32,000 nt of DNA from assembly GCF_000189295.2 (NCBI RefSeq), contig NC_016803.1:1350001-1382000 (forward strand), written 5' to 3'. The DNA is from Pseudodesulfovibrio mercurii (GTDB lineage Bacteria > Desulfobacterota > Desulfovibrionia > Desulfovibrionales > Desulfovibrionaceae). Positions within the stretch are counted from its first letter, which is position 1, and the number at the start of each line of letters is the position of its first letter. The notes under the pieces are model-generated. The model was not told the DNA's origin. It was given only the letters and a program-made list of their open reading frames with translations, and ran no database searches. Below are positions 4,401-32,000 of this stretch, in pieces. A program made the position numbers and the translations under genes.

Positions 4401-4432
4401 CTTTGGCTATTCTCGAAAAGTTCTAGATGTCC

Positions 4433-9587: not shown

Positions 9588-9655
9588 GCACTCCTTCTGG
9601 ATCTCATGTGTTGATGACTCTCTATCTAAGATCCTCCCGCTTCGGCGTGAACGCA

Positions 9656-9691
9656 CATTTCTCCAAAAACCTTGCTCATTCCTCCAAACAC
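9656..9691. promoter_or_regulatory. Direct repeat in the ADH/AraC divergent region; candidate AraC-type binding sites
   Basis: CATTTCTCCAAAAAC (9656-) and CATTCCTCCAAACAC (9676-) are spaced about 20 bp, i.e. two helical turns. Confidence 0.3.
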
Positions 9692-9761
9692 ATCCCTTTT
9701 ATGTTGAATATGGCCGACAAATGGTGTTCATAATAGCCACAGCCCACAGGAGGAACAGCCC

Positions 9762-10646: not shown

Positions 10647-10664
10647 GAGCGGACCGGGGCCGGT

Positions 10665-11558
10665 TCACGCGCCCGCCGCGAAATGGGCCTGAATGTGGTC
10701 CACGAACAGCCTGACCCGCTGGGGCAGCTGGTTCGAGCCCGTCACCAGGTAGACGTCATGCACGAACCCTCCGCTCCAGTCCGGGAGGAGGCGGATCAGC
10801 CGCCCGGCCCGTTCATCCGGCTCGGCCTTCTCCCTGCGGAGCAGCGCCACGCCGTGCCCGGCCAGGGCGAACTCACGACACATCTCCACGGAGCCGAAGC
10901 TGTACTGCGGCTGCACCTCGACGGTCACCTGCCGCGTGCCGTCGTGCATGGGCCATCGGTTGCCGAACCGCTGGAGCACGATGCACGGCAACCGGCGCAG
11001 GTCTCCCGGCTCCAAGGGCATGGAATACCGCTCCAGCAGCGCGGGCGACGCGTACAGGAACGGTTCTATGGTCAGGAGTTTCCGGGCGATCAGCGGCAGG
11101 GCGATGGAGGGACCGATGAGGAAGGCCACGTCGAACGGGTCCGTGCGCATGTCCACCGGATGCTCCACGAAGGTCAGGTCCATCTGAATGTCCGGCCATT
11201 TGACCGCGAAGTCCATGAGGGCGTCCTTGAAGGGCCGGTCGTCGTAGAGGTCCAGGAACATGCAGATGCGGATCAGTCCGGCCGGTTTCTGCATGTTCAG
11301 GACCACCGAGTCGTAGGCGTTCTGCACCTCGTCGAGGATGTACCCGCACCGGTCCAGCAGGTACGCGCCGTTGTCCGTGGGCTCGACGTTCCGGGTGTCC
11401 CGGTAGAAAAGCAGCACCCCCATCCGCTCTTCGAGCAGCTTGATGCGCCGCGACAGGGTCGAGACGCCCATGCCGAGCGTTTCCGCCGCCTTGGTGAAGC
11501 TCTTCCGCCTCGCCACTTCCACCAGCAGTGGGACGTCATTGAAAAATTCCCGACTCAT
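10665..11558 (-). CDS. LysR family transcriptional regulator
   Basis: N-terminal HTH: FNDVPLLVEVARRKSFTKAAETLGMGVSTLSRRIKLLEERMGVLLFYR. Start at MSREF (11558) is preferred over 11597, which has no RBS. Divergent from the DUF169 gene. Confidence 0.88.
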   Translation of the reverse strand: MSREFFNDVPLLVEVARRKSFTKAAETLGMGVSTLSRRIKLLEERMGVLLFYRDTRNVEPTDNGAYLLDRCGYILDEVQNAYDSVVLNMQKPAGLIRICMFLDLYDDRPFKDALMDFAVKWPDIQMDLTFVEHPVDMRTDPFDVAFLIGPSIALPLIARKLLTIEPFLYASPALLERYSMPLEPGDLRRLPCIVLQRFGNRWPMHDGTRQVTVEVQPQYSFGSVEMCREFALAGHGVALLRREKAEPDERAGRLIRLLPDWSGGFVHDVYLVTGSNQLPQRVRLFVDHIQAHFAAGA

Positions 11559-11607
11559 TTTGCCCGTCCATGGAAAAGAGTTTTCCGTATTGCCCATTTA
11601 TTTTAGT

Positions 11608-11624
11608 TTCGAGCATGGTATGAA
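11608..11624. promoter_or_regulatory. LysR-type T-N11-A box candidate
   Basis: TTC-gagcatggtat-GAA lies in the 134-bp LysR/DUF169 divergent region. Confidence 0.3.
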
Positions 11625-11692
11625 AAGGCATGTCGAAAGGCAACAGCCCCGCCCGACCGCGGGGTTCGGACGAACCATCAAAGGAGAACGAC

Positions 11693-12538
11693 ATGACGTT
11701 GCAACCCATACTCGACGGCACCGCCGCCTTCCTGGAACACCTAGGCCTGGGGGAGGAGCCCTTCGGCGTCCACTACGCCGACACCCTGCCGGAGAACGCC
11801 TACGGCCCGAAAACGGGAACGCCCATCTCGCGCGAGCTGGAGGACCGGGGGGAACTGGACATGCAGGAGGTCATGAAGACCTTCTCCTGCGTCATGGGCA
11901 ACGTCTGGCTGGCCAGGAAGAAGAAGGGCGCGGCCTTCATCTCCTCCGAAGAGTACGGCTGCCCCGGCGGCGTGTACTACTGTTCGATGATGAAGCCCCA
12001 CCTCCGGTTCATCGAGCACTACGTGTCCACCGGGTACGAGGGCTCCCCCCTGCACGGCGAGCGCTACATGCCGAATCCCGACGCCATGCGGAAATTCATG
12101 CTCGAGGTGAATCCCCGCGAAGCACCGGGCAAATACTGCATCTTCAAGCCGCTGTCCCATTTCACCGACGACGAGAAGCCGGAGTTCGTCATCTTCTTTG
12201 CCCGGCCCGAGATCCTGAGCGGGCTCTTCACCCACGCCATCTTCACCACCGGCGACATGGAATGCGTGGTCTCCCCCTTCGGTGCGGGCTGCACCAACAT
12301 GATCAGCTGGCCCCTCTACTACCAGGGCAAGGGGCTGGAGAAGGCCGTCATAGGCGGCTTCGACCCCTCGGCCCGGAAGTTCATGAAGACCGACGAGCTG
12401 ACCTTCACGGTCCCGCTGGACCTCTATGAAAAGATGCTGGCCGCCCTGCCCGAGTCCATGTTCACCCACGAAACCGACTGGAAGAACGTGCGCAAGAAGG
12501 TCGAGCGCAGCGCCAAGGCGTGGGGCGAGGACGGCTAG
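11693..12538 (+). CDS. DUF169 (COG2043) family protein
   Basis: Start trimmed to MTLQPILDG (AAGGAG at 11681-11686), giving 281 aa. The pattern resembles DUF169: conserved Cys/Gly blocks (YGCPGG, PFGAGCTNM), PEFVIFFARPEILSGL and GGFDPSARKFMKTDELTFTVP. The family call is from memory, not from a search. Confidence 0.7.
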   Translation: MTLQPILDGTAAFLEHLGLGEEPFGVHYADTLPENAYGPKTGTPISRELEDRGELDMQEVMKTFSCVMGNVWLARKKKGAAFISSEEYGCPGGVYYCSMMKPHLRFIEHYVSTGYEGSPLHGERYMPNPDAMRKFMLEVNPREAPGKYCIFKPLSHFTDDEKPEFVIFFARPEILSGLFTHAIFTTGDMECVVSPFGAGCTNMISWPLYYQGKGLEKAVIGGFDPSARKFMKTDELTFTVPLDLYEKMLAALPESMFTHETDWKNVRKKVERSAKAWGEDG

Positions 12539-16483: not shown

Positions 16484-17616
<1,133 letters not shown>

Positions 17617-17946
17617 TCAACCGCATCACAGACGCTGCGAAGTTCCTCGCCTTTCGGCTTTGCCCAGCATTCCTGGTCGGTGTGATTTTATTATCCCCAG
17701 ACGAGGGGAACGAGGTAGACCGATCCTGTCTAATTATTGCCGGATCGTACAAAATTGCCTGAAACCGGCCTGGGGGGTACACGTTCGCCTCCCCGGCCCT
17801 GACAAAGGAAGGCCGACAGGCAACGCCTTTACAGTTCACCAGGGAATACAAGCAGTTGTTCGGGCATCACCCCGGCGCCGCCTCCAGGATGTGACGGGTG
17901 CGGAAATGCCCTCCCCGCCGGTTGACAGGCATGACCGTTCCAATTA

Positions 17947-17973
17947 TTGACCCGTCAACAATTGATACGTCAA
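17947..17973. promoter_or_regulatory. Two tandem 12-bp palindromes just upstream of the MarR start; putative MarR operator
   Basis: TTGAC-CC-GTCAA (17947-17958) and TTGAT-AC-GTCAA (17962-17973) have centres 15 bp apart and end 15 nt before the ATG at 17988. Confidence 0.45.
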
Positions 17974-17987
17974 CGAATTGAGGCGAC

Positions 17988-18464
17988 ATGCACAGCGACA
18001 CCATCACGGCGTTCGACCGGGAATCCCCCGGCCGACGGTTCTCCCTCATCCAGCGCCTGAGCCTGATCTACCTGTCGGGACCGATGTCCGGGGCGGGCGT
18101 CAGCAAGGGCAAGATTCCCTATCTGATGAAGATTCTGAGCTCTCCGGGCATTGTCCAGGAAGACCTGACGAACCATCTCTGCCTTGACCGGGCGGCCACG
18201 GCCAGGGCCCTCCAGTCCCTCGAAAACGATGGCCTCATCCGCCGGGAAGAGGACCCCCGGGACCGACGCCGCAAGAACGTGTACCCGACCCCGAAGGCGG
18301 AAGGCCTCCAGGAAGAGATGATCGCCATCCTCAAGGCGCACAACGACGTGCTCCTTTCCGGCTTCACCGGGGAGGAGCGGAACCTGCTCATGTCGCTGCT
18401 CGACAGGGTGACCGACAACCTCCGCCGCAACCTGGACAAACCCCGCCGCAATCCCGAAGCCTAG
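17988..18464 (+). CDS. MarR family transcriptional regulator
   Basis: 158 aa. Winged HTH: IPYLMKILSSPGIVQEDLTNHLCLDRAATARALQSLENDGLIRREEDPRDRRRKNVYPTPKA. Confidence 0.88.
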   Translation: MHSDTITAFDRESPGRRFSLIQRLSLIYLSGPMSGAGVSKGKIPYLMKILSSPGIVQEDLTNHLCLDRAATARALQSLENDGLIRREEDPRDRRRKNVYPTPKAEGLQEEMIAILKAHNDVLLSGFTGEERNLLMSLLDRVTDNLRRNLDKPRRNPEA

Positions 18465-18530
18465 CCCCTTCCCAGTCGGCCCCGGTCGCCCCAGGACCCT
18501 GCATCAAACGATTTCAACCGAGGCATCACC

Positions 18531-22787: not shown

Positions 22788-23076
22788 GATGGCGCATCGT
22801 TCCAGCTCCGTAGGGAATGACGGACAACGTTGAAAACGCCCGGAGATGCGCAAAAAAAGGATCAAATAATCGCATCACGCGAAACGCAATCGCAACGGCA
22901 CGGGCCTCGCAATCCGGACGACCCGGCGCCCGCCGAATCCCGATTCGCGCACGCAAGGGGCACTCCTCGGCACGGGTTGGGCCGGGAATCTCTAGGCAAT
23001 GGACTCGTCTTACGGGACGTTGCAAGTTGAAAGGGGACACGGCCACAGAGACGTTTCGAAGGGATTTCGGCGGGGA

Positions 23077-23313
23077 TCAGAGGTACTCCCAGACCTTGCC
23101 GATGGTCGTTTCCATAATGGCCACGGCGCAAAGATCGCTGTAGGCGATTTCGACGATCTCGGCCCGAAGCCGCCCCGCCCCCTGCTCGTTGTTGTAGGCG
23201 TCCCTGATGGCAATGGACTCACTGCGGGAGCGTGATCGGGGAGAGCTGCCGTCATGCGTCCGGGGGTGGTAGCCCATGAAAATCTTTTTGACCTCTTCCT
23301 GATCGCTGTTCAT
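23077..23313 (-). CDS. Hypothetical small protein (78 aa)
   Basis: MNSDQEEVKKIFMGYHPRTHDGSSPRSRSRSESIAIRDAYNNEQGAGRLRAEIVEIAYSDLCAVAIMETTIGKVWEYL. Codon third positions are G/C-biased as in real genes here. The RBS is weak and no family is recognised. The upstream part of ORF 23077..23508 looks non-coding. Confidence 0.35.
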   Translation of the reverse strand: MNSDQEEVKKIFMGYHPRTHDGSSPRSRSRSESIAIRDAYNNEQGAGRLRAEIVEIAYSDLCAVAIMETTIGKVWEYL

Positions 23314-23954
23314 ATCCCGTTCCCGTTGGTTTGTGATCGTTCCGTGTACGATTCCGGGGCCGACATCCGGAATCCGGCGCGAACCATGTGGTCTCAGTTG
23401 ATGTCCTGAGCCGGCGCCGAGTGCGTTCACTGTGCATAGGGGGCATGTCGGCACGCCCATTCGCATCGCAAGCGAGCCCTGCCGCCATCGGCATCGGTCC
23501 GACCGCATGCATATTTGCCAGCTAACGTGCCATAAAAGTAGCCTATGTTATTACGGAGTCAAGTTCTTCTTATCAGGAGAACAGTATAGCGGATTCCACT
23601 GCTTCGGACCGGGTTTCCGGAGTCGGGACACACTCCAGTCCGGGCATGTTCGCTCAGGACATCCATGCGAATGGGCCCGCGCACAGCTCAAGGGGAAGGC
23701 TGGGGCCGCGACCATGCCCGCGCGCACGGGATGTCGTTCATTTCGCATGACGTCGGGGGAAAAGCGGCCCCATAGCGGACACGACGAAGCCATTGCCACC
23801 CTTTCCAGCGGTTCGAGCCAGACGCCGTCAAAGGGCGACCGGGCGCGCAGGGAGGCGAAAAGGACAAACCTCCCCCTCGACGCCTGTCGCAATGACGGGG
23901 CAGTGATTGCTCCGCCTCAAAGGGCCGGACCCGGGATCAGCCCGCCCAGCCGAA

Positions 23955-24776
23955 TCAGAGGCCGACAAGCTGGCCGGCAATCTCATCGATATCCAATGAG
24001 AAGGAGCGGGTCGGAGCTTCGAACAATCGGGAAGCTTCGACTGCGGCCGAAGGGATTTCCTCAAGAAGCTTCTGGGACAAGCTCCTGTCCAGGCGCACGG
24101 TGGGCACCGAGCAGCTTATGGTCGCCAGGATGCGCCCGGAATCGTCGAAAACCGGCGCGGCAACGCAGCGGATACCCTTGAACAACTCCTCGAAATCCAG
24201 TCCGAGCCCACGTACCCTGGCGAGTTCCAGCTCCCTGTACAGCCAGTTGATCTTGTCGCTGTCCACCCGCGCATCGGTACGGCGCAACTCCTTGATGAAG
24301 CTGCGCAGATCCTCCTCGGGCAAAAAGGCCAAAAAGGCCTTGCCCGAAGCCGACAGATAGGCCGGAAAGGACGTCCCCACAATCGAATCCATTTGCAGGG
24401 CGTGGTAGGAAGCCTTCTGGTGGATCACCACCATGTCCACACCGGAGAGGACGCTCAGGTTGACCGTCTCGTTGACCTTGTCGCGCAATCTCAACATGAT
24501 GGGCTGCACCATGGACACGATGTCGTTCCGCGACGTGATCTGCTTTCCCAACTTGTAGAACTTCAGGGTCAGGGCGTATGCCCCGCCGCGTTCGACTTGA
24601 CGCACGTAGCCGAGGTCCTCGTACGTCCTGAGAATCCGTTGCAGCGTGCCTTTGGGCATGGAACAGACCGCGCTCAGATCCTTCAGCTCCCATTTGCTTT
24701 TCGTGGCCATGGTCTCGGCGACGAAAAGGGCCTTTTCCAGGGAACGCATCATGTAATACTTGTCGTCTGTTGCCAT
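23955..24776 (-). CDS. IclR family transcriptional regulator
   Basis: Start trimmed to MATDDKYYMMRSLEKAL (GAGGAG upstream), giving 273 aa. HTH: LKDLSAVCSMPKGTLQRILRTYEDLGYV. Effector domain: ASGKAFLAFL, GIRCVAAPVFD..GRILATISCSVP. Confidence 0.9.
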   Translation of the reverse strand: MATDDKYYMMRSLEKALFVAETMATKSKWELKDLSAVCSMPKGTLQRILRTYEDLGYVRQVERGGAYALTLKFYKLGKQITSRNDIVSMVQPIMLRLRDKVNETVNLSVLSGVDMVVIHQKASYHALQMDSIVGTSFPAYLSASGKAFLAFLPEEDLRSFIKELRRTDARVDSDKINWLYRELELARVRGLGLDFEELFKGIRCVAAPVFDDSGRILATISCSVPTVRLDRSLSQKLLEEIPSAAVEASRLFEAPTRSFSLDIDEIAGQLVGL

Positions 24777-24821
24777 CGTCTCCTCAGAGGCTTTTCCGCC
24801 CGCGAAGTTGCCGGGCAGAGA

Positions 24822-24860
24822 ATTTGAATGCCCTTCGGATAAAGAGAAGGGCATTCAAAT
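24822..24860 (-). other. 15-bp perfect intercistronic hairpin between the BCCT and IclR genes
   Basis: ATTTGAATGCCCTTC / ggataaaga / GAAGGGCATTCAAAT. There is no U-tract on the transcribed (minus) strand, so it is more likely a processing, stability or attenuation element than a strong terminator. Confidence 0.6.
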
Positions 24861-24861
24861 A

Positions 24862-26427
24862 TTAGCTTTTCTCGGACTCAGTGTCCAGCCAATTCGGTTT
24901 GTTTAATAAATATATTCCGTCTTTTACAAGCGATACGCACATGGCGAACGTGAAAATCATCATGGGGAACCCGGCAAGGGAAATGAGCCCCCGAACGGGT
25001 TCGATCCCGCCCGCTATGCACAGGACATATGCCACGAGCCCGACGATGACCCCCCAGAGCACCTTGAGCCGCTTGGGAGGCTCCTCGTCCGCACGAACGC
25101 CCTTGGTCGAAATGATCGCCAGTGTGGCCACCAGGGAGTCGGTCATCGTGGCGAAGGAAAACACGATGGTGACGACGAACAACCCCATCAATATGTTGCT
25201 GTACGGGAACTGCGAGAGAATGATGTAGACCATCGACTCCATGCCGAACTCGTGGATGCCGGACCAGACATCGACCAGGCCGCTCCACTGATAGAACACG
25301 GCGGTCCCGCCGAACGTGGATATCCAGAAATGACAAAACACGGTCGGAGGAATGACGTTGATCAGGATGAACTGGCGAATCGTCCTCCCCTTGCCCATGC
25401 GCGCCAGGAAGTGGCCGAGCAGCGGCGCGAAGATGAAGAAAATCTCCATGTACGGGACAAGCCACTGCATGGGCCAGAGATCATTTGCCTGCATGGTGTT
25501 GAGCAGGGTGCTGTTCCGGAAGAAGTTGTTGGCGAAATAGCCGAACGACTCGACCCCGATGCCGAGGATGAACAGCGTCGGCCCGGCGAAAAGGACGATG
25601 GCCATGAAAAAGAGAAAGGCCCTCGTGGTTCCGGTGGAAAGGTAGCACATGCCCTTCTTCAGCCCCGAATACGAGGAGAGCACGTAAATCGGGATGATGA
25701 TGGCCGCCGCCACCCCCCAGGTCACCGGCCCCGGCGTGTAGTTGAAGATTCTGCCCGTGCCGCTGCCGATCTGCATGAGTCCCGCGCCCATGCTGGTGGC
25801 GACGGCGCAACACAGTGAAAAAAGACAGATGGCGTGAACCATCGGCGTCAGGACCGGACGCAGCCTTTCCGGAAAGAGCGCGTACATGCCCGCCGCCACG
25901 GACAGGGGATATTTCCTATTGTAGCTGACCAGGGCGATCGCCACGCCGCAGACCGTATAGAAACAGTACTGGGCGATGGTCCAGTGGAGCGTGGTCTGGG
26001 CAATGGCGAAAACGCCCGCGTCCTTGGTTCCGGGTTCGATATGCAGGCTGAGCGGGGGCTGCATCATGTGGTAGATGGGTTCGCCCATGGCCCAGAATAG
26101 GATGCCGATGCCGATGCAGCCGCACAGGGACAGCGCGAACCATTGCCAGAAAGTGAACTCCGGCTTGGCGTCCTTGCCGCCCAGCCGGATGTTGCCGATG
26201 GGCGAAAAGGCCAGCCCGGCGGTGAACATGACGATGATGATCCCCAGGGAGACCTCCAGCCATCCGAAATTCACATGAATCCAGGCCATGGTGCAGGCCA
26301 GCAAATCGGCAAGCCTCTGGTGGTACACCAGGCCCAGGGCGATACCGCCGATCAGCAGGATAAATCCGGGCCAAAACGTAAAGGGATTCAGCGACCTTCT
26401 GTCATCATCCGTTTTCTCAACCGGCAT
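24862..26427 (-). CDS. BCCT (betaine/carnitine/choline transporter) family secondary transporter
   Basis: Start trimmed to MPVEKTDDD (AGGAGG 6 nt upstream), giving 521 aa and about 12 TM spans. BCCT blocks: GNIRLGG.DAKPEF....W.A, GIGILFWAMGEP, TLHWT, LSSYSGLKKG, W.MQWLVPYMEIFFIFAPLLGHFLARMGKGRTIRQF. Confidence 0.93.
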   Translation of the reverse strand: MPVEKTDDDRRSLNPFTFWPGFILLIGGIALGLVYHQRLADLLACTMAWIHVNFGWLEVSLGIIIVMFTAGLAFSPIGNIRLGGKDAKPEFTFWQWFALSLCGCIGIGILFWAMGEPIYHMMQPPLSLHIEPGTKDAGVFAIAQTTLHWTIAQYCFYTVCGVAIALVSYNRKYPLSVAAGMYALFPERLRPVLTPMVHAICLFSLCCAVATSMGAGLMQIGSGTGRIFNYTPGPVTWGVAAAIIIPIYVLSSYSGLKKGMCYLSTGTTRAFLFFMAIVLFAGPTLFILGIGVESFGYFANNFFRNSTLLNTMQANDLWPMQWLVPYMEIFFIFAPLLGHFLARMGKGRTIRQFILINVIPPTVFCHFWISTFGGTAVFYQWSGLVDVWSGIHEFGMESMVYIILSQFPYSNILMGLFVVTIVFSFATMTDSLVATLAIISTKGVRADEEPPKRLKVLWGVIVGLVAYVLCIAGGIEPVRGLISLAGFPMMIFTFAMCVSLVKDGIYLLNKPNWLDTESEKS

Positions 26428-26540
26428 AGTGAGCCTCCTATTCCCCCTGCAAAACGCCTCGGGTCGTGAACCTGACGTCTCTACACGATGCGATATACGC
26501 CTCACAAGGGTATGGCGATTCAATTTTTTTTGGAACGACA

Positions 26541-26555
26541 TACCATTTTGTGGTA
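26541..26555. promoter_or_regulatory. TACCA-N5-TGGTA palindrome in the BCCT/OFOR divergent control region
   Basis: TACCATTTTGTGGTA uses the same half-site as the sites at 26745-26826. Confidence 0.4.
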
Positions 26556-26801
26556 AACTTATTCCACGAATCAAATGCTGTCAATCTGCTAGCCGCACAA
26601 AAATCAGCACAAATATTTCACGGACGTAATACATAAATTATCAATTTTTACGGTATATTAAATGAAAATTTAACATTATTATCGACTTTTTCCTCAAAAT
26701 CGGTTGACGCGGCAGTTGCCCCCAGGTATCGTGATTTTGCAAAACACCGTACCACAATACGAAACGCAAGCCTGTCGCTTCAACTCGTTTCGCTGCATTA
26801 G

Positions 26802-26816
26802 TGGTACACCGTACCA
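26802..26816. promoter_or_regulatory. TGGTAC-N3-GTACCA palindrome about 65 nt upstream of the OFOR alpha start; candidate operator
   Basis: TGGTACACCGTACCA. The 11-mer ACACCGTACCA recurs at 26744-26754, with extra GGTAT half-sites at 26725-26729 and 26822-26826. Confidence 0.45.
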
Positions 26817-26879
26817 AATTATGGTATTTAATTGAGGCAAACACTGAAGCAAACCGCAACAAATTTCATTGAGGTGCAT

Positions 26880-27950
26880 ATGGCCCAAGAAACTTTGTTC
26901 CTGAAAAACACTGAGGCTTTCGCCGAGAGCCTGGCCCGGTGTGGAGTGAAATACCACTTCGCCTACCCGATCACTCCGGCGACGGACGTGATGAAGCGCA
27001 TGGCGGTCATCCTGCCCGCCTACGGCGGGGAAATGATGCAGATGGAGAGCGAGCTGGCCGTGTCCAGCGCCCTTGCCGGCGCCGCATGCACCGGCAAGCT
27101 GGTGGCCACATCCAGCTCCGGCCCCGGGCTGACCCTCATGCATGAGGCCATAGGCTTCATGTGCGCGGCCGAACTGCCCTGCCTCCTGGTCGATTCCATG
27201 CGCGTCGGCCCCGGCGACGGCGACATCCTCGGCGCCCAGAGCGATTATTACGTCGCCACGCGCGGCGGCGCCCACGGCGACTACCACACCATCGTTCTCG
27301 CCCCCGCCTCCGGACAGGAAATCGCGGACATCGTCCCCACCGGCATCAGACTGGCCTACACCTACAGAACGCCCGTCCTCTTCGTGATCGACGGCGTGAG
27401 CGCCCAGACCACCGAATCCACCACCCTGCCGGACTACCACGACTACTCCGCCGAGTTCGACACCACCGGATGGGCATTCACCGGCACGCAGGACCACCCC
27501 AAGCGGGCGCTCATCACCGGCAGCTACTCCCACCAGGACGGCTACGAGCTGAACGAGCGGCTGCGCGCCAAGTACGCGACCATCCGCGAAAAGGAACAGT
27601 TGTGGGAACAGGATGGGATCAATGACGCCGAGCTCGTGGTCGCCGCCTTCGGCATTCACGGCCGCATGTGCCGGGACCTGGTCGCCAAGATGCGGGCCGA
27701 GGGCAAGAAGGTGGGCTTCATCCGGCCCATCACCCTGTGGCCGTTCCCCGAACTCGTCTTCGCCGAGCTTCCGGACTCGGTGAAAAACATTCTCGTTGTC
27801 GAGATGAACCACGGCCAGATGGTCGACGACGTCCGGCTCGCCGTGAATGGGCGGATACCCGTCCACTTCCTCGGCAAGACCGGCGGCGACATGCCCATGA
27901 ACACCCTGGCTGAGATGATTGCCGAAGCAAACCGGATTCTGGGGGAGTAA
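26880..27950 (+). CDS. 2-oxoacid:ferredoxin oxidoreductase, alpha subunit
   Basis: Start at MAQETLFL (GAGG upstream), giving 356 aa. Motifs: FAYPITPATD, MESELAVSSALAGAACTG, TSSSGPGLTLM, and C-terminal domain III (VGFIRPITLWPFP). Confidence 0.92.
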   Translation: MAQETLFLKNTEAFAESLARCGVKYHFAYPITPATDVMKRMAVILPAYGGEMMQMESELAVSSALAGAACTGKLVATSSSGPGLTLMHEAIGFMCAAELPCLLVDSMRVGPGDGDILGAQSDYYVATRGGAHGDYHTIVLAPASGQEIADIVPTGIRLAYTYRTPVLFVIDGVSAQTTESTTLPDYHDYSAEFDTTGWAFTGTQDHPKRALITGSYSHQDGYELNERLRAKYATIREKEQLWEQDGINDAELVVAAFGIHGRMCRDLVAKMRAEGKKVGFIRPITLWPFPELVFAELPDSVKNILVVEMNHGQMVDDVRLAVNGRIPVHFLGKTGGDMPMNTLAEMIAEANRILGE

Positions 27951-27954
27951 TCAC

Positions 27955-28716
27955 ATGGAAAATCTGAGCGCCAAGTACGGAAAAACGCTGAACCTTGACA
28001 AACTGACCAGCTACTGCCCGGGCTGCGGCCACGGCATCGTGACCCGCCTGGTGGCCGAAGCCATCGAGAGCCTGGGCATCATGAGCCGAACCATCTCCAT
28101 CGTCGGCATCGGCTGCGGCGGCTTCTCGCACCACTACATGGACATCGACGCCATCGAGGCCACCCACGGACGGTCTCCGTCCTTCGCCATCGGCTACAAG
28201 CTGGCCCGCCCCGACAACATCGTCTTCACCTACGCGGGCGACGGCGACACCTGCGCCATCGGACTCGGCGACCTGATGCACGCGGCCAACAAGGGCATGC
28301 CCATCACCACCATCATGGTCAACAACACGGTGTTCGGCATGACCGGCGGACAGATGTCCCCCACCACCCTTGAGGGCCAGGTGACGACAACCACGACCAA
28401 GGGCCGCGCGGTTCCCCATCAGGGCTACCCCCTCCTGGTGCCTGAAATGATGCGCGCCATGCCGGGCGTGAAGTACCTGGCACGGGAGTCCGTGGCCACC
28501 CCCAAGGATGTCCGGAAGGCCAAGAAAAGCATCCGCAAGGCCTTCGAATGCCAGGTCAAGGGCCTCGGCTACGCCTTCGTGGAAGTCATCGTCCCCTGCC
28601 CCACCGGCCTCAAGATGAATGTCAAGGACTCCTATGCGCGGTGCGGCAACGAAATGGCGGACTATTTCAAACCTCAGGTCTTCAAAGACGAAACGGAGCA
28701 AAGCGATGTTGCATAA
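27955..28716 (+). CDS. 2-oxoacid:ferredoxin oxidoreductase, beta (TPP-binding) subunit
   Basis: Start at MENLSAKYG. Motifs: YCPGCGHG, IGCGG, the TPP motif GDGD....G and MVNNTVFGMTGGQ. Confidence 0.92.
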   Translation: MENLSAKYGKTLNLDKLTSYCPGCGHGIVTRLVAEAIESLGIMSRTISIVGIGCGGFSHHYMDIDAIEATHGRSPSFAIGYKLARPDNIVFTYAGDGDTCAIGLGDLMHAANKGMPITTIMVNNTVFGMTGGQMSPTTLEGQVTTTTTKGRAVPHQGYPLLVPEMMRAMPGVKYLARESVATPKDVRKAKKSIRKAFECQVKGLGYAFVEVIVPCPTGLKMNVKDSYARCGNEMADYFKPQVFKDETEQSDVA

Positions 28717-29254
28717 GTGCATGTTTTCGGGATCGGGCGGCCAGGGGTCCGCGCTCATGGCGAAGATGGTTTGCCTGGGAGCGATCAAGGAGAACCTGAA
28801 GGTCGTCATGACCCAGACCTACGGCATTGAACAACGCGGCGGCGATTCCACCGCCTACGTGATCGTGTCCGACGAACCCATCGGCAGCCCCATCGTGGAG
28901 AACGACGCAGACATCGCCGTGGCGCTCAGCCAGTCCATCTACGGCAACTGTTTTGCCGGAGTGGTTCCCGACGGCATGCTCTTCACCAACAGCTCGATGG
29001 TCGAGAACCCGAAGGAAAGCGACGCGTTCAAGCAGGTCTTCCTCCCGGTTTCCGACACCGCCGTCCAGCTCGGCACCGTCCGTTGCGCCAACATGGTGAT
29101 GCTCGGCGCGGTGCTGGCCGGAACCGGCCTTCTCAAGCTGGAGACCGTCGAAGAGGTCGTACGGGAAACCATCGGGAACAAGAAGCCTCAACTGGTGGAG
29201 CTGAACATCGAGGCGCTGCGTAGCGGATATTCCGCCATGAAGAAGGAGTCGTAG
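28706..29254 (+). CDS. 2-oxoacid:ferredoxin oxidoreductase, gamma subunit
   Basis: Starts at MLHKCMFSGSGGQGSALMAKM. Shows the GxGGQG motif and QTYGIEQRGG. Overlaps the beta stop by 11 nt, suggesting translational coupling. Confidence 0.88.
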   Translation: MLHKCMFSGSGGQGSALMAKMVCLGAIKENLKVVMTQTYGIEQRGGDSTAYVIVSDEPIGSPIVENDADIAVALSQSIYGNCFAGVVPDGMLFTNSSMVENPKESDAFKQVFLPVSDTAVQLGTVRCANMVMLGAVLAGTGLLKLETVEEVVRETIGNKKPQLVELNIEALRSGYSAMKKES

Positions 29255-29255
29255 A

Positions 29256-29471
29256 ATGAGCGAGAAACATCATGTCATTGACGCCCGCCGCTGCAAGGCC
29301 TGCGGGCTTTGCGTGGACAACTGCCCCAAGGCGGTTCTTGCCCTCGGCACCGCAATCAATGCGCAGGGATACAACTACGTCGTCCAGGAACACCCGGAAA
29401 ACTGCGTACTTTGCGACATTTGCGGCACCATCTGCCCCGACATGGCCATCGGTGTCGTCGTAGACCAGTAA
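29256..29471 (+). CDS. 2-oxoacid:ferredoxin oxidoreductase, delta subunit (2x[4Fe-4S] ferredoxin)
   Basis: 71 aa with AAGGAG RBS. Two clusters: CKACGLCVDNCP and CVLCDICGTICP. Confidence 0.9.
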   Translation: MSEKHHVIDARRCKACGLCVDNCPKAVLALGTAINAQGYNYVVQEHPENCVLCDICGTICPDMAIGVVVDQ

Positions 29472-29477
29472 AAGCCC

Positions 29478-29505
29478 AAGGCGCCCGCCCCCTCGCGGGC
29501 GCCTT
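29478..29505 (+). other. GC-rich 11-bp hairpin between the OFOR delta and acyl-CoA synthetase genes
   Basis: AAGGCGCCCGC / cccctc / GCGGGCGCCTT has no U-tract and abuts the AAGGAG RBS of the next gene. Confidence 0.6.
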
Positions 29506-29519
29506 CAAGGAGTATATTC

Positions 29520-31667
29520 ATGAGTGATCTTGTTCCCCTGTTTCAGCCCAGGAGCGTCGCGCTGATCGGCGCCTCCTCCAACTCGAAGAAATACGGATAT
29601 TGGACCGCGAAAAGCCTCATCGAAAACGGCTTCGAGGGAGATATCCACCTCGTTTCCCGCACCGGAGGCGAAATCTTCGGACGTCCGACCTATCCCGACA
29701 TCCTCGCCGTCCCCGGCGAGGTGGACCTTGCCATCATCGCCATCGCGCCCAAGCACATCCTGCCCATCATGGAGCAGTGCGTCGAAAAGGGCGTCAAATG
29801 CGCCATCGTCGTCTCCACCGGGTTCGGCGAGACCGGCCCCGAGGGCAAGGAGCTCGAACGCAAGATGCTGGAGATCGCCCGCAAGGGAAACATGCGCGTC
29901 CAGGGCCCGAACTGCATGGGCACCTACAGCTCGGCCAAAAGCATGAACGCGAGCATCATCGACCTGGCCCCCGGCCCCATGAGCCTGGTCCTCCAGAGCG
30001 GCAACTTCGGCATCGACATCAACTTCAACGCCAAGTCCCGCAACCTCGGCTACAGCTGCTGGGCCACCATCGGCAACCAGATGGACATGCGCTTCCACGA
30101 CTTCGTTGAGTACATCGAGGAAGACGAAAACACCAAGGTGCTCCTCCTTTACATGGAGGGCCTGCGGGTCGAAAGCGAGGAAGACGGACGGAAATTCCTG
30201 GAAGCGGCCAAAAAAACGGCCGCCAGGGTGCCCATCGCCGCCATCAAGATCGGCCGCAGCGCCGCCGGCGCCCGCGCCGCCGCTTCGCATACCGGCTCCC
30301 TCGCTGGCAGTGAAAAGATTTTCGACGCGGCCCTCCGACAGGCGGGCATCATCCGGGTGGACAGCCCGGGCGAGCTCCTGGACGCCGCCGAGGCCTTCTC
30401 CAAGTGCAAGCCCGCCAGCGGCAAGCGCATCGCCATCCTGACCGACGGCGGCGGGCACGGTGTCATGGCCACGGATTTTGCCGAAAAGTACGGGCTTGAG
30501 GCGCCGGTCCTTTCGGACGCCACCCAGGCCAAGCTGCGGGAAATCCTCATGCCCCACTGCCCGATCAAGAACCCCGTCGACCTGGCCGGTACACCCGAGG
30601 CGGACATGTGGGTGTTCGACCGCTGCCTGGACGTCCTCATGAAGGATCCGGACGTCGACGGCATCGTCATCGTGGGCCTCTACGGCGGCTACGCCGACCT
30701 CTCCGAAGAGTTCCGGGTCCTGGAGATGGACGTGGCCAAGAGCATGGTGGAAAAGATCAACGCGGGCGACAAGCCGGTGGTCATGCATTCCATCTATCAG
30801 CCCCAGCACCCTGAATGCCTTGACTATATCAGCGAACACGGCGTTCCCGTCTTCGGCGGCGTCGATGCGGCGGTCAAGACAATGGGCGTCCTCTCGACCT
30901 ACAGCGAGCTGAAAAAGGCCCTGCGGAAAGAGTCCGGCAACGAACTGCCGAGCATGCCCGCCGACCGCAAGGAAAGGGCCTCAGCCATCCTCGACGCCGT
31001 CAAGGCGGCGGGCCGCAAGAACCTCGTCGAGACCGAGGCACGCCACGTGCTGCGCTGCTACGGGCTCGACATCGCGGACGACTACCTGGCCACCACGGCC
31101 GACGAGGCCGCGGCCTTCTACAAGAAGATCGGCGGCAAGGTCGTCATGAAGATCGTATCGCCCGACATCCTGCACAAGACCGATGCCGGCGGCGTCGCGC
31201 TGAACATCGACTCCGAAGCCAAGGCGCGGAGCGCCTTCGAACAGTTGGTGAAAAACGGACGCACATACAAGGCCGGAGCCGACATCTTCGGCGTCATGCT
31301 GACCCCCATGCTCCCCGGCGGCGTCGAGTGCATCATCGGTTCGAGCCACGACAACACCTTCGGGCCGACCGTCATGTTCGGCCTGGGCGGCATATTCGTG
31401 GAGATACTCAAGGACGTGGCCTTCCGTGTGGCCCCGGTCAACATGCCCGCCTGCCGCAGCATGATCCGGGAGATCAAGGGACTGGGCATGCTCCAGGGCG
31501 CCCGCGGGAGCAAGGCGTGCGACCTGGAGGCCCTGGCGGAAGCGGCCTGCATCATCTCGCAACTCGTATCGGAGTTGCGCGAGATCGCGGAAGTCGATCT
31601 CAACCCGGTCTTTGCGTTGGAAAAAGGCCTGTCCATCGCCGACGCAAGAATCATTTTGCACGGGTAA
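29520..31667 (+). CDS. ADP-forming (NDP-forming) acyl-CoA synthetase, fused alpha-beta form (ACD family)
   Basis: 715 aa. N-terminal CoA-binding domain (PRSVALIGAS...YG), GPNCMG, phosphohistidine loop AASHTGSLAGS, and a C-terminal ATP-grasp domain (VVMKIVSPDILHKTDAGGVALNI). Confidence 0.92.
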   Translation: MSDLVPLFQPRSVALIGASSNSKKYGYWTAKSLIENGFEGDIHLVSRTGGEIFGRPTYPDILAVPGEVDLAIIAIAPKHILPIMEQCVEKGVKCAIVVSTGFGETGPEGKELERKMLEIARKGNMRVQGPNCMGTYSSAKSMNASIIDLAPGPMSLVLQSGNFGIDINFNAKSRNLGYSCWATIGNQMDMRFHDFVEYIEEDENTKVLLLYMEGLRVESEEDGRKFLEAAKKTAARVPIAAIKIGRSAAGARAAASHTGSLAGSEKIFDAALRQAGIIRVDSPGELLDAAEAFSKCKPASGKRIAILTDGGGHGVMATDFAEKYGLEAPVLSDATQAKLREILMPHCPIKNPVDLAGTPEADMWVFDRCLDVLMKDPDVDGIVIVGLYGGYADLSEEFRVLEMDVAKSMVEKINAGDKPVVMHSIYQPQHPECLDYISEHGVPVFGGVDAAVKTMGVLSTYSELKKALRKESGNELPSMPADRKERASAILDAVKAAGRKNLVETEARHVLRCYGLDIADDYLATTADEAAAFYKKIGGKVVMKIVSPDILHKTDAGGVALNIDSEAKARSAFEQLVKNGRTYKAGADIFGVMLTPMLPGGVECIIGSSHDNTFGPTVMFGLGGIFVEILKDVAFRVAPVNMPACRSMIREIKGLGMLQGARGSKACDLEALAEAACIISQLVSELREIAEVDLNPVFALEKGLSIADARIILHG

Positions 31668-31705
31668 CAAACACCATATAAACTTCATATACAAAGGGTC
31701 GGATC

Positions 31706-32000
31706 ATGAAAGACGTAAAGCGTTTTCCCACAACGACAGGGCAGAGCTGGCTGGAAATGTCCGGGTACAAGTTCCACCAGTTCAAGGACCATTCCGAAAT
31801 CCGTGACGTGTACGACTATATCGTCATAGGCGCCGGATACGGCGGTCAGGGGGCCGCCAGGCACCTGGCCGAGCTCCATCCCGATGCCAAGATCGCCGTC
31901 TTCGAAGCCATCAAGATCGGCGACAACGACAGCGGCAAGAACGCCGGATTCATCATCGACGTGCCCCACGACTTCGGCGACCAGGGCGCCTCCTCCTTCG
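31706..32000 (+). CDS. FAD-dependent oxidoreductase (DAO/OrdL/PuuB-like), N-terminal part; gene runs off the right edge
   Basis: Absent from the ORF track because it is open-ended. My translation: MKDVKRFPTTTGQSWLEMSGYKFHQFKDHSEIRDVYDYIVIGAGYGGQGAARHLAELHPDAKIAVFEAIKIGDNDSGKNAGFIIDVPHD.... It shows the dinucleotide fold GxGxxG...E plus the GxxxSG.N.G block typical of DAO-family amine oxidoreductases. Confidence 0.72.
   Translation, partial: MKDVKRFPTTTGQSWLEMSGYKFHQFKDHSEIRDVYDYIVIGAGYGGQGAARHLAELHPDAKIAVFEAIKIGDNDSGKNAGFIIDVPHDFGDQGASSF

Follow-up and report, generated by a model that had tools for sequence, protein, structure and literature searches.

The region described here, part of a 32,000 nucleotide stretch of the Pseudodesulfovibrio mercurii chromosome (the window), carries a widely conserved gene cluster that appears to be uncharacterized; no description of it was found in the literature. 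It is present in sulfate- and sulfite-reducing bacteria, including the gut pathobiont Bilophila. Its genes encode a BCCT transporter and an IclR regulator that diverge from an operon for a four-subunit OFOR, a fused ADP-forming acyl-CoA synthetase (ACD), a DAO-family FAD oxidoreductase, a RidA imine deaminase and an MFS transporter. The best model, which is about as likely as not and is inferred from sequence alone, is that the cluster imports a proline-like amino acid, oxidizes it to a ring-shaped 2-oxoacid, and consumes the latter to yield reduced ferredoxin and ATP.

Gene content and organization

An earlier note, made from the sequence alone, described these genes up to the truncated FAD oxidoreductase, and open reading frame and Pfam analyses confirm its observation in full (Table 1). 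The 11 nt overlap of the OFOR beta and gamma genes (bp 28,706–28,716) and the 39 nt between the ACD and oxidoreductase genes are as it stated, and the shared control region that it gave as 450 bp is 452 bp. The genes have third codon position GC contents of 0.76–0.87, as expected for coding frames in this 62% GC genome. The note also stated that the operon continues beyond the window, and a public contig that is identical to the window over 1699 nt shows that it does so with the full 441 amino acid oxidoreductase, RidA (125 amino acids) and the MFS transporter.

Table 1. Features of the P. mercurii cluster (window positions)
Feature	Position	Strand	Description	Supporting observations
IclR-family transcriptional regulator	23955–24776	-	273 aa from the Met at 24776; ORF open to 24854; downstream of the BCCT gene on the same strand	Pfam IclR_C (E 8.7e-39) and HTH_IclR; best NCBIfam model BhcR, 142 bits (cutoff 350), no equivalog reached
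BCCT-family transporter	24862–26427	-	521 aa; degenerate tryptophan box; proposed substrate importer or substrate/product exchanger	Pfam BCCT (PF02028, E 1.5e-113); below every NCBIfam equivalog cutoff
Divergent control region	26428–26879		452 bp, AT-rich	GC falls to 0.51; islands of conservation in an alignment of 8 orthologous intergenic regions
Operator-like palindrome O1	26540–26556		ATACCATTTTGTGGTAA	Conserved in all 8 species; 2 mismatches to GTACCA-N5-TGGTAC
Likely -35 of the BCCT-IclR promoter	26584–26579	-	TTGACA, abutted by O1	Conserved
Sigma-70-like promoter of the OFOR operon	26704–26732	+	TTGACG-17 nt-TATCGT	Consensus scan; GGTTGACG block invariant in the 8-species alignment
Operator-like half-conserved palindrome O2	26749–26765		Just downstream of the operon promoter	GTACC-N-CAAT-N-GG conserved across species
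Operator-like palindrome O3	26811–26827		GTACCAAATTATGGTAT	One mismatch to the pattern, best match in the whole window; TGGTAC...GTACC conserved in all 8 species
OFOR alpha	26880–27950	+	356 aa; YPITP motif, carboxylate-binding Arg108, family-specific RVGPGDGD (Asp113)	Pfam POR_N and PFOR_II; best NCBIfam model VorB subfamily, 377 bits (cutoff 399); best solved relatives 1yd7, 8ys5 and 6n2n
OFOR beta	27955–28716	+	253 aa; TPP-binding GDG...NN, CPGCG cluster cysteines, Phe57	Pfam TPP_enzyme_C; aligned to 8ys5_C, 6n2n_B and 5b48_B
OFOR gamma	28706–29254	+	182 aa	Pfam POR (E 3.3e-38); TIGR02175 PorC_KorC, 85.5 bits (cutoff 81.1)
OFOR delta	29256–29471	+	71 aa; 2x[4Fe-4S] ferredoxin-like	Two CxxCxxCxxxCP motifs; Pfam Fer4 and Fer4_7; nearest NCBIfam models OGOR delta subunit and OorD
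Fused ACD (alpha-beta order)	29520–31667	+	715 aa; 100% identical to a P. mercurii protein	Five Pfam domains, among them CoA_binding_2, Succ_CoA_lig, Ligase_CoA_2 and ATP-grasp_5; 517 bits (NCBIfam cutoff 1300), no equivalog reached
DAO-family FAD-dependent amine/amino-acid dehydrogenase	31706–32000	+	First 98 of 441 residues; cut by the window end	Pfam DAO

For the GTACCA-N5-TGGTAC pattern, to which O1 has 2 mismatches, the window background is 17 matches observed against 5.7 expected. The best solved relative of the ACD is 8wzu, a 4-hydroxybutyrate-CoA ligase [ADP-forming] (E 5.8e-131 over the full length), which acts on a 4-substituted butyrate, and the SHTGSLAG histidine loop of the P. mercurii ACD is invariant in 17 homologs. 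The RidA protein scores above the curated RidA-subfamily cutoff (120.7 against 106.25). The oxidoreductase, on the other hand, has no informative close relative; it gives no PDB sequence hit at E<=1e-3, and the nearest folds to its AlphaFold2 model (mean pLDDT 89) are those of glycine oxidase, L-amino-acid deaminase and sarcosine oxidase beta, at about 15% identity.

The BCCT protein lacks most of the tryptophan box. Its motifs are HWTIAQY and WLVPYMEIFF, where BCCTs encoded next to MttB betaine demethylases in sister loci have HWGxHxW and WTxFYWxWW, and it keeps only one of the box tryptophans; its best solved relative is the trimethylamine transporter 8zw8 (225 bits).

Conservation of the cluster and its interchangeable front ends

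The absence of conserved linkage in related genomes had been named beforehand as grounds for rejecting a dedicated pathway, but the linkage is conserved across the Desulfovibrionaceae and beyond. Among 40 distinct related loci, the four OFOR genes and the ACD gene are colinear in 35, RidA is present in 31, an IclR gene in 24, and the same DAO family in 23. DAO, RidA, BCCT and IclR occur together in 14 loci, among them that of Bilophila wadsworthia ATCC 49260.

In a tree of the ACD proteins, loci with this DAO are intermixed with loci that lack it. Two of the latter, in a gut Desulfovibrio MAG and the isolate Desulfovibrio sp. Huiquan2017, carry instead genes for an MFS protein, a DAO-beta-like protein, a Fer2_4 protein and a Pyr_redox_2 protein (a three-component D-imino-acid dehydrogenase) and a Pro_racemase. 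That racemase has a Cys/Cys dyad and is closest to the Acetoanaerobium sticklandii proline racemase 7pb3 (400 bits, against 173–185 bits for hydroxyproline epimerases); it scores 509 bits with the NCBIfam proline racemase model. In Klebsiella and Desulfobacterium loci the DAO is replaced by a proline-racemase-family enzyme, but these have a Ser/Cys dyad, which in Zhao et al. (PMC4113996) marked 4-hydroxyproline epimerases rather than dehydratases; those clusters would then lack an oxidase. The window's own clade (DAO plus BCCT) contains no proline-racemase-family gene within 10 kb, so the proline inference is transferred from sister clades whose ACD and OFOR are 66–74% identical.

The OFOR pocket

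The OFOR is not a housekeeping Kor or Por by these criteria; no curated NCBIfam equivalog cutoff is reached for its alpha or beta subunit, and its substrate pocket, mapped on Sulfolobus StOFOR1 (PMC5020499), is family-specific. The carboxylate-binding Arg and the YPITP motif are kept, but pocket residue Thr349a is an invariant Asp within RVGPGDGD (invariant in 41 alpha subunits), where every solved relative has GPSTG. Lys49b, which is required for 2-oxoglutarate turnover in StOFOR1 and is Arg in the KGOR structures 8ys5 and 6n2n, is an invariant Phe (Phe57) within GIGCGGF(S/H)HHY (invariant in 42 beta subunits). This fits a cationic rather than an anionic side chain, although the Asp113 argument is suggestive only, since the T349aL mutation had little effect in StOFOR1 (PMC5020499).

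A proposed catabolic pathway

The locus is best explained as an IclR-controlled catabolic operon for a proline-type cyclic or omega-amino amino acid, most likely D- or L-proline and/or a hydroxyproline. In this view the BCCT, together with the MFS transporter, would take up the substrate and probably export the product, and the DAO-family flavoprotein would dehydrogenate the C2-N bond to give delta1-pyrroline-2-carboxylate or its 4-hydroxy form. RidA would then speed hydrolysis or tautomerization of this imine to the open-chain 2-oxoacid, 5-amino-2-oxopentanoate, which the OFOR would oxidatively decarboxylate to 4-aminobutyryl-CoA (or 4-amino-3-hydroxybutyryl-CoA) with reduction of ferredoxin, and the ACD would convert the thioester to the free acid (GABA or GABOB) plus ATP. 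The electrons would feed sulfate or sulfite respiration. D-proline dehydrogenation and 3-hydroxyproline dehydration are both known to give delta1-pyrroline-2-carboxylate (PMC4113996, PMC4364671). However, 4-aminobutyryl-CoA is known to lactamize to 2-pyrrolidone, RidA has not been shown to act on cyclic ketimines, and a distant DAO homolog in Pseudomonas germanica (44% identity) sits next to a DHDPS-family gene, which points to 4-hydroxyproline rather than proline. The gene content and its conservation, the family assignments, the pocket substitutions and the conserved operator-like sites are established by the sequence comparisons, whereas the substrate, the action of RidA on a cyclic imine, the product and the direction of transport are inferences without experimental support.

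The interpretation offered in the earlier note is supported in part. Its central proposal, a self-contained route of uptake, flavin oxidation to a 2-oxoacid, OFOR and then ACD with substrate-level phosphorylation, survives, and is strengthened by the conserved linkage, by the downstream RidA, which logically links the flavoenzyme to the OFOR, by the nature of the OFOR and by the conserved operator-like palindromes. Its lean toward quaternary amines as substrate is not supported. In that reading, glycine betaine, choline, carnitine or proline betaine would be imported by the BCCT and a derivative would feed the DAO, OFOR and ACD. The transporter does belong to the BCCT family, and in Desulfobacterium-type loci the OFOR-ACD module sits with MttB-family methyltransferases, a corrinoid protein and a BCCT (in one locus also with TMADH/StcD-like flavoproteins), suggesting that proline-betaine-type compounds feed the same module there. 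But the window and its clade have no MttB or other demethylase, a DAO-type flavoenzyme cannot oxidize a quaternary nitrogen, the tryptophan box that the MttB-linked BCCTs keep is largely lost, and the interchangeable front-end enzymes in sister loci are proline-family enzymes, so this reading seems unlikely. Similarly doubtful is the idea that the OFOR and ACD are general housekeeping enzymes (Kor, Vor or Por type plus acetyl- or succinyl-CoA synthetase) that merely sit beside unrelated transporter and oxidase genes, or that they serve common amino acids such as D-alanine, D-glutamate or branched-chain amino acids. The nearest solved OFORs are 2-oxoglutarate enzymes, the VorB score is close to its cutoff, and Liv-type ABC transporters lie near the module in two loci; however, the ACD, like OFOR alpha and beta, reaches no curated equivalog cutoff, the Phe and Asp substitutions are unfavorable for 2-oxoglutarate and for hydrophobic side chains, gene order with DAO, RidA, transporters and IclR is conserved across genera, and the operator-like sites are conserved.

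Two other routes are possible but much less likely than the proline-type route, and neither is more likely than the other. In one, 4-hydroxyproline is degraded by deamination; the DAO would make delta1-pyrroline-4-hydroxy-2-carboxylate, which would be deaminated with the help of RidA to 2,5-dioxopentanoate (alpha-ketoglutarate semialdehyde), and OFOR and ACD would convert this to succinic semialdehyde plus ATP. The DHDPS-family and MFS genes that flank the P. germanica homolog resemble the known pairing of D-hydroxyproline oxidase with the deaminase, the Ser/Cys proline-racemase-family enzymes resemble 4-hydroxyproline epimerases, 8wzu uses a C4 acid oxygenated at C4, and aldo/keto reductase or aldehyde dehydrogenase genes follow the module in some loci. 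On the other hand, no locus with the module has a DHDPS-type deaminase, RidA is not known to catalyze the dehydration step, the acidic Asp113 is not explained by an aldehyde side chain, and the racemases of the two Desulfovibrio loci are proline-racemase-like rather than epimerase-like. In the other, the substrate is a basic D- or L-amino acid or a related imino acid (ornithine, arginine, lysine or pipecolate); the DAO would make the 2-imino acid, RidA would hydrolyze it, and OFOR and ACD would give 4-aminobutyrate, 4-guanidinobutyrate or 5-aminovalerate plus ATP. The pocket changes favor such cationic side chains equally, RidA proteins are known to accelerate the D-arginine dehydrogenase reaction (PMC5619798), the weak NCBIfam hits of the DAO include the L-pipecolate oxidase AmaA, and D-ornithine oxidation gives the same 2-oxoacid as D-proline. 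However, the proline racemase superfamily to which the variable front-end enzymes of sister loci belong is not known to act on these substrates, and BCCT and MFS transporters are not typical basic amino acid carriers.

Relationship to known systems

The two-step chemistry, 2-oxoacid to acyl-CoA to acid plus ATP with ferredoxin reduction, is that of archaeal (Thermococcales) peptide fermentation by POR, VOR, IOR and KGOR with ADP-forming acyl-CoA synthetases, and the four-subunit OFOR layout and the ACD domain set are also shared. The present system is bacterial, its ACD is a single fused alpha-beta polypeptide, the 2-oxoacid would be made by a dedicated flavoprotein plus RidA encoded in the same operon rather than by transaminases, the OFOR pocket is family-specific, and the whole forms an apparently substrate-specific, IclR-linked operon with its own transporters. 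The 2-oxoglutarate:ferredoxin oxidoreductases (KorABCD/OorDABC; 8ys5 and 6n2n) and Sulfolobus StOFOR (5b46, 5b48) are the closest solved structures and share YPITP, the carboxylate-binding Arg, the TPP motif and the cluster cysteines, but they differ at the two pocket positions discussed above, and no NCBIfam Kor equivalog cutoff is met.

The aerobic bacterial hydroxyproline and D-proline pathways (LhpA/HypE epimerase, LhpBEF or HypO D-hydroxyproline dehydrogenase, LhpC deaminase and KGSA dehydrogenase, as well as 3-hydroxyproline dehydratase plus Pyr2C reductase) use the front-end enzyme types found in sister loci, namely a proline-racemase-family enzyme, a DAO/Fer2_4/Pyr_redox_2 dehydrogenase and an OCD-family protein, and the same cyclic ketimine intermediates are expected. 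Here, however, there is no DHDPS-type deaminase, no KGSA dehydrogenase and no obligatory Pyr2C reductase; the ketimine or 2-oxoacid would instead be oxidatively decarboxylated by an oxygen-sensitive OFOR, with energy conserved by an ACD. Stickland D-proline reduction in Clostridia (proline racemase plus D-proline reductase) is also anaerobic and uses a proline racemase orthologous to those of the two Desulfovibrio loci, but there proline is an electron acceptor reduced to 5-aminovalerate, whereas here it would be an electron donor, oxidized with loss of C1. Finally, the lactate oxidation operon of Desulfovibrio (LDH, PFOR, Pta, Ack; PMC4481167) follows the same physiological logic of incomplete oxidation in a sulfate reducer, with a substrate dehydrogenase, then a 2-oxoacid:ferredoxin oxidoreductase, then substrate-level phosphorylation, but the P. 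mercurii locus has a four-subunit OFOR in place of the large homodimeric PFOR and an ACD in place of Pta/Ack, and its substrate would be a nitrogenous one.

Gene content and extent of the cluster

Open reading frame listing and Pfam scans of the window (about 62% GC) show each of the genes that the earlier note had named from the sequence alone, so its observation holds in full; they are listed in the table below. The third-codon-position GC of 0.76-0.87 supports these reading frames. The ACD is 100% identical to a protein of Pseudodesulfovibrio mercurii. The first 24 kb of the window hold unrelated genes (peroxiredoxin, MarR, MFS, MTHFR, NrdD, Fe-ADH, AraC, LysR and others), and in the sister species P. 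thermohalotolerans the left neighbors of the cluster are different, being hydrogenase maturation genes; the cluster therefore begins at the IclR gene. About 1.1 kb immediately left of the IclR gene has no convincing coding frame and no Rfam or tRNA hit, and since the neighbors on this side differ between the two species it may be a rearrangement scar. Within the unrelated part, a cobalamin riboswitch (Rfam RF00174, 104.8 bits) lies immediately before the anaerobic ribonucleotide reductase gene nrdD, which implies B12-dependent control of this class III RNR.

Coordinates of features in the window and in related contigs (L numbers denote contigs or loci carrying homologs)
Sequence	Position	Strand	Feature
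Window	4419-4593	+	Cobalamin riboswitch (RF00174)
Window	4595-6868		nrdD, anaerobic ribonucleotide reductase
Window	22790-23955		Interval between a DUF364/DUF4213 gene and the IclR gene
Window	23955-24776	-	IclR-family regulator
Window	24862-26427	-	BCCT-family transporter
Window	26428-26879		Divergent region, 452 bp, AT-rich
Window	26540-26556		Palindrome-like site abutting the transporter promoter
Window	26584-26579	-	Conserved TTGACA
Window	26704-26732	+	Promoter-like site of the OFOR operon
Window	26749-26765		Palindrome-like site downstream of the operon promoter
Window	26811-26827		Palindrome-like site downstream of the operon promoter
Window	26880-27950	+	OFOR alpha subunit
Window	27955-28716	+	OFOR beta subunit
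Window	28706-29254	+	OFOR gamma subunit (11-nt overlap with beta)
Window	29256-29471	+	OFOR delta subunit
Window	29520-31667	+	Fused ADP-forming acyl-CoA synthetase (ACD), 715 aa
Window	from 31706	+	DAO-family FAD oxidoreductase, 39 nt after the ACD, cut by the window end
L049 (contig overlapping the window end)	2731-2823		93-nt spacer with hairpin, between DAO and RidA
L007/L030 (Desulfobacterium MAG)	8583-12178		ACD (68% identical) paired with a DAO/Amino_oxidase gene
L024; L041 and L021	10462-11433; 12972-14102 and 6521-7372		D-2-hydroxyacid dehydrogenase directly after the ACD, or aldo/keto reductase after RidA
L033 (Desulfovibrio MAG)	17533-18462		TauE/SafE-family membrane protein
L053 (Desulfovibrio sp. 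Huiquan2017)	17596-18501		TauE/SafE-family membrane protein

A public contig, L049, is identical to the window over its last 1699 nt and continues with the complete 441-aa DAO protein, a 93-nt spacer, a 125-aa RidA protein and the start of an MFS transporter gene. The spacer contains a strong GC-rich hairpin (GGAAAGGATGCCG...CGGCATCCTTTCC) without an obvious T-run, and could be an internal attenuator or an mRNA-stability element inside the operon. The same gene order, IclR<-BCCT<- ->OFORabgd-ACD-DAO-RidA-MFS-EamA, occurs in P. thermohalotolerans and other relatives. The RidA ortholog of locus L001 scores 120.7 bits against the TIGR00004 RidA-subfamily cutoff of 106.25, and the P. mercurii RidA on L049 carries the PAR motif with the conserved active-site Arg. 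RidA enzymes hydrolyze 2-imino acids and enamines to 2-oxoacids, which is exactly the step needed between an amino-acid-oxidizing flavoprotein and an OFOR, and its presence strengthens the pathway logic proposed in the earlier note (uptake, flavin oxidation to a 2-oxoacid, oxidative decarboxylation and substrate-level phosphorylation).

Conservation of the module and variation of its front end

One genome per species was scanned with an ACD alignment, followed by tblastn with reference proteins; together with neighborhoods fetched by exact protein look-up this gave 40 distinct loci. (An exact look-up of the window ACD itself in the contig index gave no record, and neighborhoods of its homologs and of the DAO protein were used instead.) OFORabgd lies next to the ACD in 35 of the 40 loci, and most of the rest are truncated contigs. 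RidA is present in 31, the same DAO family in 23, an MFS transporter in 28, a BCCT in 19 and an IclR gene in 24, and DAO, RidA, BCCT and IclR occur together in 14. The hosts are Pseudodesulfovibrio, Maridesulfovibrio, Desulfocurvus, Desulfoplanes, many gut Desulfovibrio MAGs and Bilophila wadsworthia ATCC 49260; in Bilophila the identities to the window proteins are 79% for OFOR alpha, 80% for the ACD and 71% for the DAO. Absence of conserved linkage in related genomes had been named beforehand as grounds for discarding the idea of a functional module, and the linkage is in fact conserved. The module is common in gut Desulfovibrio and Bilophila sequences, where single 90%-identity clusters hold hundreds to more than a thousand metagenomic members.

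A neighbor-joining tree of the ACDs has three groups. Clade A holds the window and only DAO+RidA+BCCT+MFS loci. Clade B holds MFS-DAO-OFOR-ACD-RidA-MFS-IclR loci, intermixed with loci that lack this DAO. Two of the latter, in Desulfovibrio genomes (L033 and the isolate Huiquan2017, L053), instead have after RidA and MFS a DAO-beta-like protein, a Fer2_4 protein, a Pyr_redox_2/Fer2_BFD protein and a Pro_racemase gene. This racemase has the Cys/Cys dyad and aromatic residues at the two sites that Watanabe et al. associate with proline racemases (PMC4364671); it scores 400 bits to the Acetoanaerobium sticklandii proline racemase, against 173-185 bits to hydroxyproline epimerases, and 509 bits to the NCBIfam proline racemase model. 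The three-subunit dehydrogenase has the make-up of the Pseudomonas D-hydroxyproline dehydrogenase LhpBEF. In both genomes a TauE/SafE-family membrane protein, which may be a product exporter, is encoded between the three-component dehydrogenase genes and the racemase gene.

Also in clade B, Klebsiella huaxiensis (contigs L002-L004) carries a 66-70% identical OFOR-ACD-RidA module, split into two divergent operons, on what looks like a mobile element. It has a ProP-like MFS gene, a Ser/Cys proline-racemase-family gene, an IclR gene, a nearby OCD/mu-crystallin gene and a Fer2 reductase gene, and in one contig it sits next to conjugation genes (TraG-like, DtrJ-like, hok), which suggests horizontal transfer of an oxygen-sensitive module into an enterobacterium. 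A megablast of this cluster against plasmids and E. coli genomes, made to read its upstream genes, gave only a 130-nt unrelated match in plasmids and none in E. coli.

Clade C (Desulfobacterium and related MAGs) couples the module to a BCCT, MttB-family methyltransferases and a corrinoid protein, sometimes with a proline-racemase-family gene or TMADH/StcD-like flavoproteins; that is the equipment expected for proline-betaine-type osmolytes. Two copies of the OFOR-ACD module occur in one 6-Mb Desulfobacterium MAG (L005/L034 and L025; loci L022 and L041 are grouped with these), each tied to a BCCT and MttB-family methyltransferases. One copy has a corrinoid protein and the other has two TMADH/OYE-like flavoproteins and an HdrD-like CCG protein, and these may be anaerobic proline-betaine-type demethylation routes feeding the same module. 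In a Desulfobacterium MAG locus (L007/L030) a 68% identical ACD overlaps a DAO/Amino_oxidase gene by 13 nt with no OFOR nearby, so this ACD family is also used in another, unexplained context. Some module variants carry a D-2-hydroxyacid dehydrogenase directly after the ACD or an aldo/keto reductase after RidA, which hints at alternative entry or exit steps.

All of these front ends belong to proline or hydroxyproline metabolism, although the Klebsiella and Desulfobacterium proline-racemase-family enzymes are ambiguous. They have a Ser/Cys dyad and not the Ser/Thr dehydratase dyad, so the dyad cannot be read as proof of dehydratase activity. D-proline dehydrogenation and 3-hydroxyproline dehydration converge on delta1-pyrroline-2-carboxylate (Pyr2C), the cyclic imine of the 2-oxoacid 5-amino-2-oxopentanoate (PMC4113996, PMC4364671).

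The OFOR and its predicted substrate pocket

Four consecutive ORFs encode the parts of a four-subunit 2-oxoacid:ferredoxin oxidoreductase: domains I and II in alpha (Pfam POR_N plus PFOR_II), the TPP-binding domain VI in beta (TPP_enzyme_C), domain III in gamma (POR; it passes the TIGR02175 cutoff) and a 2x[4Fe-4S] domain V in delta (Fer4). The catalytic motifs are present as well. FAYPITPATD and R108 of alpha align to Thr256 and Arg344 of StOFOR1, the latter being the carboxylate-binding arginine, and beta has CPGCGHG, GIGC and AGDGD...VNN, which supply the cluster cysteines and the TPP motif.

The OFOR is not a housekeeping enzyme by these criteria: no NCBIfam equivalog cutoff is reached, with Kor alpha at 189 against a cutoff of 579 and Kor beta at 135 against 364, although the closest solved structures are 2-oxoglutarate enzymes and the Sulfolobus OFORs. 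The pocket residues defined for StOFOR1 (PMC5020499) were mapped through alignments. Pocket residue Thr349a is Asp113, which lies in an RVGPGDGD motif that replaces the GPSTG of every solved relative. Lys49b, whose mutation in StOFOR1 abolishes 2-oxoglutarate turnover and whose equivalent is Arg in the KGOR structures 8ys5 and 6n2n, is Phe57, so the basic residue for the distal carboxylate of 2-oxoglutarate is missing. Both substitutions are invariant in all 41 alpha and 42 beta sequences across clades A-C. The whole family thus shares a pocket that has lost a positive charge and gained a negative one, which disfavors 2-oxoglutarate and hydrophobic side chains and fits a side chain ending in an ammonium group. 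This is inferred from alignment and not from structure, and the T349aL change had little effect in StOFOR1, so the argument should not be over-weighted.

The transporter and the other enzymes

The transporter belongs to the BCCT family (Pfam E 1.5e-113) but scores below all NCBIfam BCCT equivalog cutoffs. The aromatic tryptophan box that cages the trimethylammonium group in carriers of the BetP, BetT, CaiT and OpuD type (TM4 W...W..Y; TM8 WT.FYW.WW) reads HWTIAQY and WLVPYMEIFF in the window protein; only one Trp is kept, and Tyr or Phe stand at three positions. Alignment to solved BCCTs and an internal comparison show a clear split: BCCTs beside MttB demethylases keep the canonical box (HWGxHxW; WTxFYWxWW), whereas all DAO-linked BCCTs, both the window type and the 43-45% identical gut type, read HW(T/S)IAQY and W(L/I)xxYM(E/A/G)xFF. 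A trimethylammonium cage is thus not conserved, which is compatible with a secondary or primary amine zwitterion.

The DAO protein has the N-terminal GxGxxG FAD fold and two-domain architecture of its family (Pfam DAO on the fragment and on full-length homologs), but this DAO family is narrow and uncharacterized. A search returned 179 proteins at E<=1e-10, a PDB sequence search gave no hit at E<=1e-3, and no characterized subfamily cutoff is met. A confident AlphaFold2 model (mean pLDDT 89) matches glycine oxidase, L-amino-acid deaminase and sarcosine oxidase beta with TM-scores of 0.63-0.72 but only about 15% identity; these are generic DAO-family neighbors and do not allow a substrate call. 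A 44% identical homolog in Pseudomonas germanica lies between a DHDPS-family gene and an MFS gene, which recalls the pairing of D-hydroxyproline oxidase with its deaminase and keeps hydroxyproline in play, while a distant homolog in Pseudomonas corrugata sits alone beside a LysR gene and is uninformative.

The ACD has the CoA-binding, CoA-ligase and ATP-grasp domains of its superfamily (five Pfam domains) and an invariant SHTGSLAG phosphohistidine loop. It is closest, over its full length, to the ADP-forming 4-hydroxybutyrate-CoA ligase 8wzu, a weak hint for a 4-substituted C4 acyl group.

The control region

Alignment of the divergent region from eight species shows a conserved minus-strand TTGACA, a conserved plus-strand GGTTGACG that begins the promoter-like site of the OFOR operon, and three conserved TACCA-N5-TGGTA-like palindromes. 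The palindrome pattern is enriched in the window (17 matches against 5.7 expected), and its best match and one of the two next best lie in this region. No riboswitch or tRNA was found in the control region. The regulator has the N-terminal winged HTH and C-terminal effector domain of the IclR family (Pfam HTH_IclR and IclR_C), and this arrangement is what one expects of IclR-type repression and argues against constitutive expression, although binding of IclR to these sites is inferred from sequence alone.

A proposed pathway for a proline-type imino acid

In the model we favor, a proline-type imino acid would be taken up by the BCCT and/or the MFS transporter and dehydrogenated at C2-N by the DAO enzyme; in other genomes this step would be done by a racemase plus a three-component dehydrogenase, or the same intermediate would be produced from 3-hydroxyproline. 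RidA would accelerate conversion of the enamine or cyclic imine to the open 2-oxoacid, the OFOR would yield 4-aminobutyryl-CoA, or its 3-hydroxy analog, plus reduced ferredoxin, and the ACD would yield GABA or GABOB plus ATP, with one of the transporters exporting the product. The minimal cluster encodes no enzyme for further metabolism of the acid but does encode two or three transporters, and both facts fit incomplete oxidation with product excretion. The genes and their order, their conservation, the family assignments, the pocket substitutions and the conserved palindrome-like sites are direct results of the analysis, whereas the substrate, the action of RidA on a cyclic imine, the acyl substrate and product of the ACD, the direction of transport and the binding of IclR are inferred. 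We are quite confident of the generic scheme, in which an amino or imino acid is converted to a 2-oxoacid, an acyl-CoA and an acid plus ATP by a substrate-specific, regulated operon. A proline or hydroxyproline substrate with a Pyr2C-type OFOR substrate seems about as likely as not. The main caveats are that the proline inference is transferred from sister clades, that the Ser/Cys dyad of the Klebsiella and Desulfobacterium enzymes is ambiguous, that 4-aminobutyryl-CoA is chemically labile and that there are no experimental data.

The interpretation given in the earlier note is partly supported by these findings. Its two-step route from 2-oxoacid to acid plus ATP survives, and an OFOR of the housekeeping Kor type is disfavored by the pocket and the profile scores, but the quaternary amines that it listed as candidate substrates (betaine, choline, carnitine) are argued against by the degenerate tryptophan box, even though clade C suggests that proline-betaine-type compounds could feed the same module in other genomes. 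The canonical bacterial 4-hydroxyproline pathway (LhpA-LhpBEF/HypO-LhpC-LhpG) is not encoded here either: no epimerase, DHDPS-family or aldehyde dehydrogenase gene lies in the window cluster or its clade, and only the dehydrogenase step has a candidate.

A more far-reaching reading, which remains tentative and is less likely than not, is that sulfate- and sulfite-reducing bacteria of sediments and the gut, including Bilophila wadsworthia, possess an undescribed oxygen-sensitive, ATP-yielding oxidative pathway for proline or hydroxyproline. In this view a specialized OFOR would decarboxylate the ring-opened delta1-pyrroline-2-carboxylate, an omega-amino 2-oxoacid, RidA would serve as a cyclic-ketimine hydrolase, and an ACD would release GABA or GABOB, which would link collagen-derived imino acids to H2S production and to the release of neuroactive amines. 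Given the abundance of the module in gut sequences, it could bear on H2S production and on GABA-type metabolites in the gut. Even if the substrate guess is wrong, the cluster is a well-delimited, conserved and experimentally tractable unknown, as P. mercurii ND132, Desulfovibrio sp. Huiquan2017 and B. wadsworthia are all cultured hosts.

Relation to known pathways

The combination of OFOR and ACD is a known kind of pathway. The dedicated flavoprotein/RidA front end, the family-specific OFOR pocket, the atypical BCCT and the link to proline-family metabolism in sulfate and sulfite reducers appear undescribed; full-text literature searches found no paper describing this module, although they missed most subscription-journal papers and prior work cannot be excluded. 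Incomplete oxidation with excretion of the product would be analogous to the conversion of lactate to acetate in Desulfovibrio. Proline and hydroxyproline are abundant, from collagen, plant cell walls and osmolytes, and an oxidative route that conserves energy by substrate-level phosphorylation would add a new electron-donor pathway for Desulfovibrionaceae, a new substrate class for OFOR and ACD enzymes, and a metabolic rather than damage-control role for RidA. The known anaerobic routes for these imino acids, by contrast, are reductive (Stickland) or depend on glycyl-radical enzymes.
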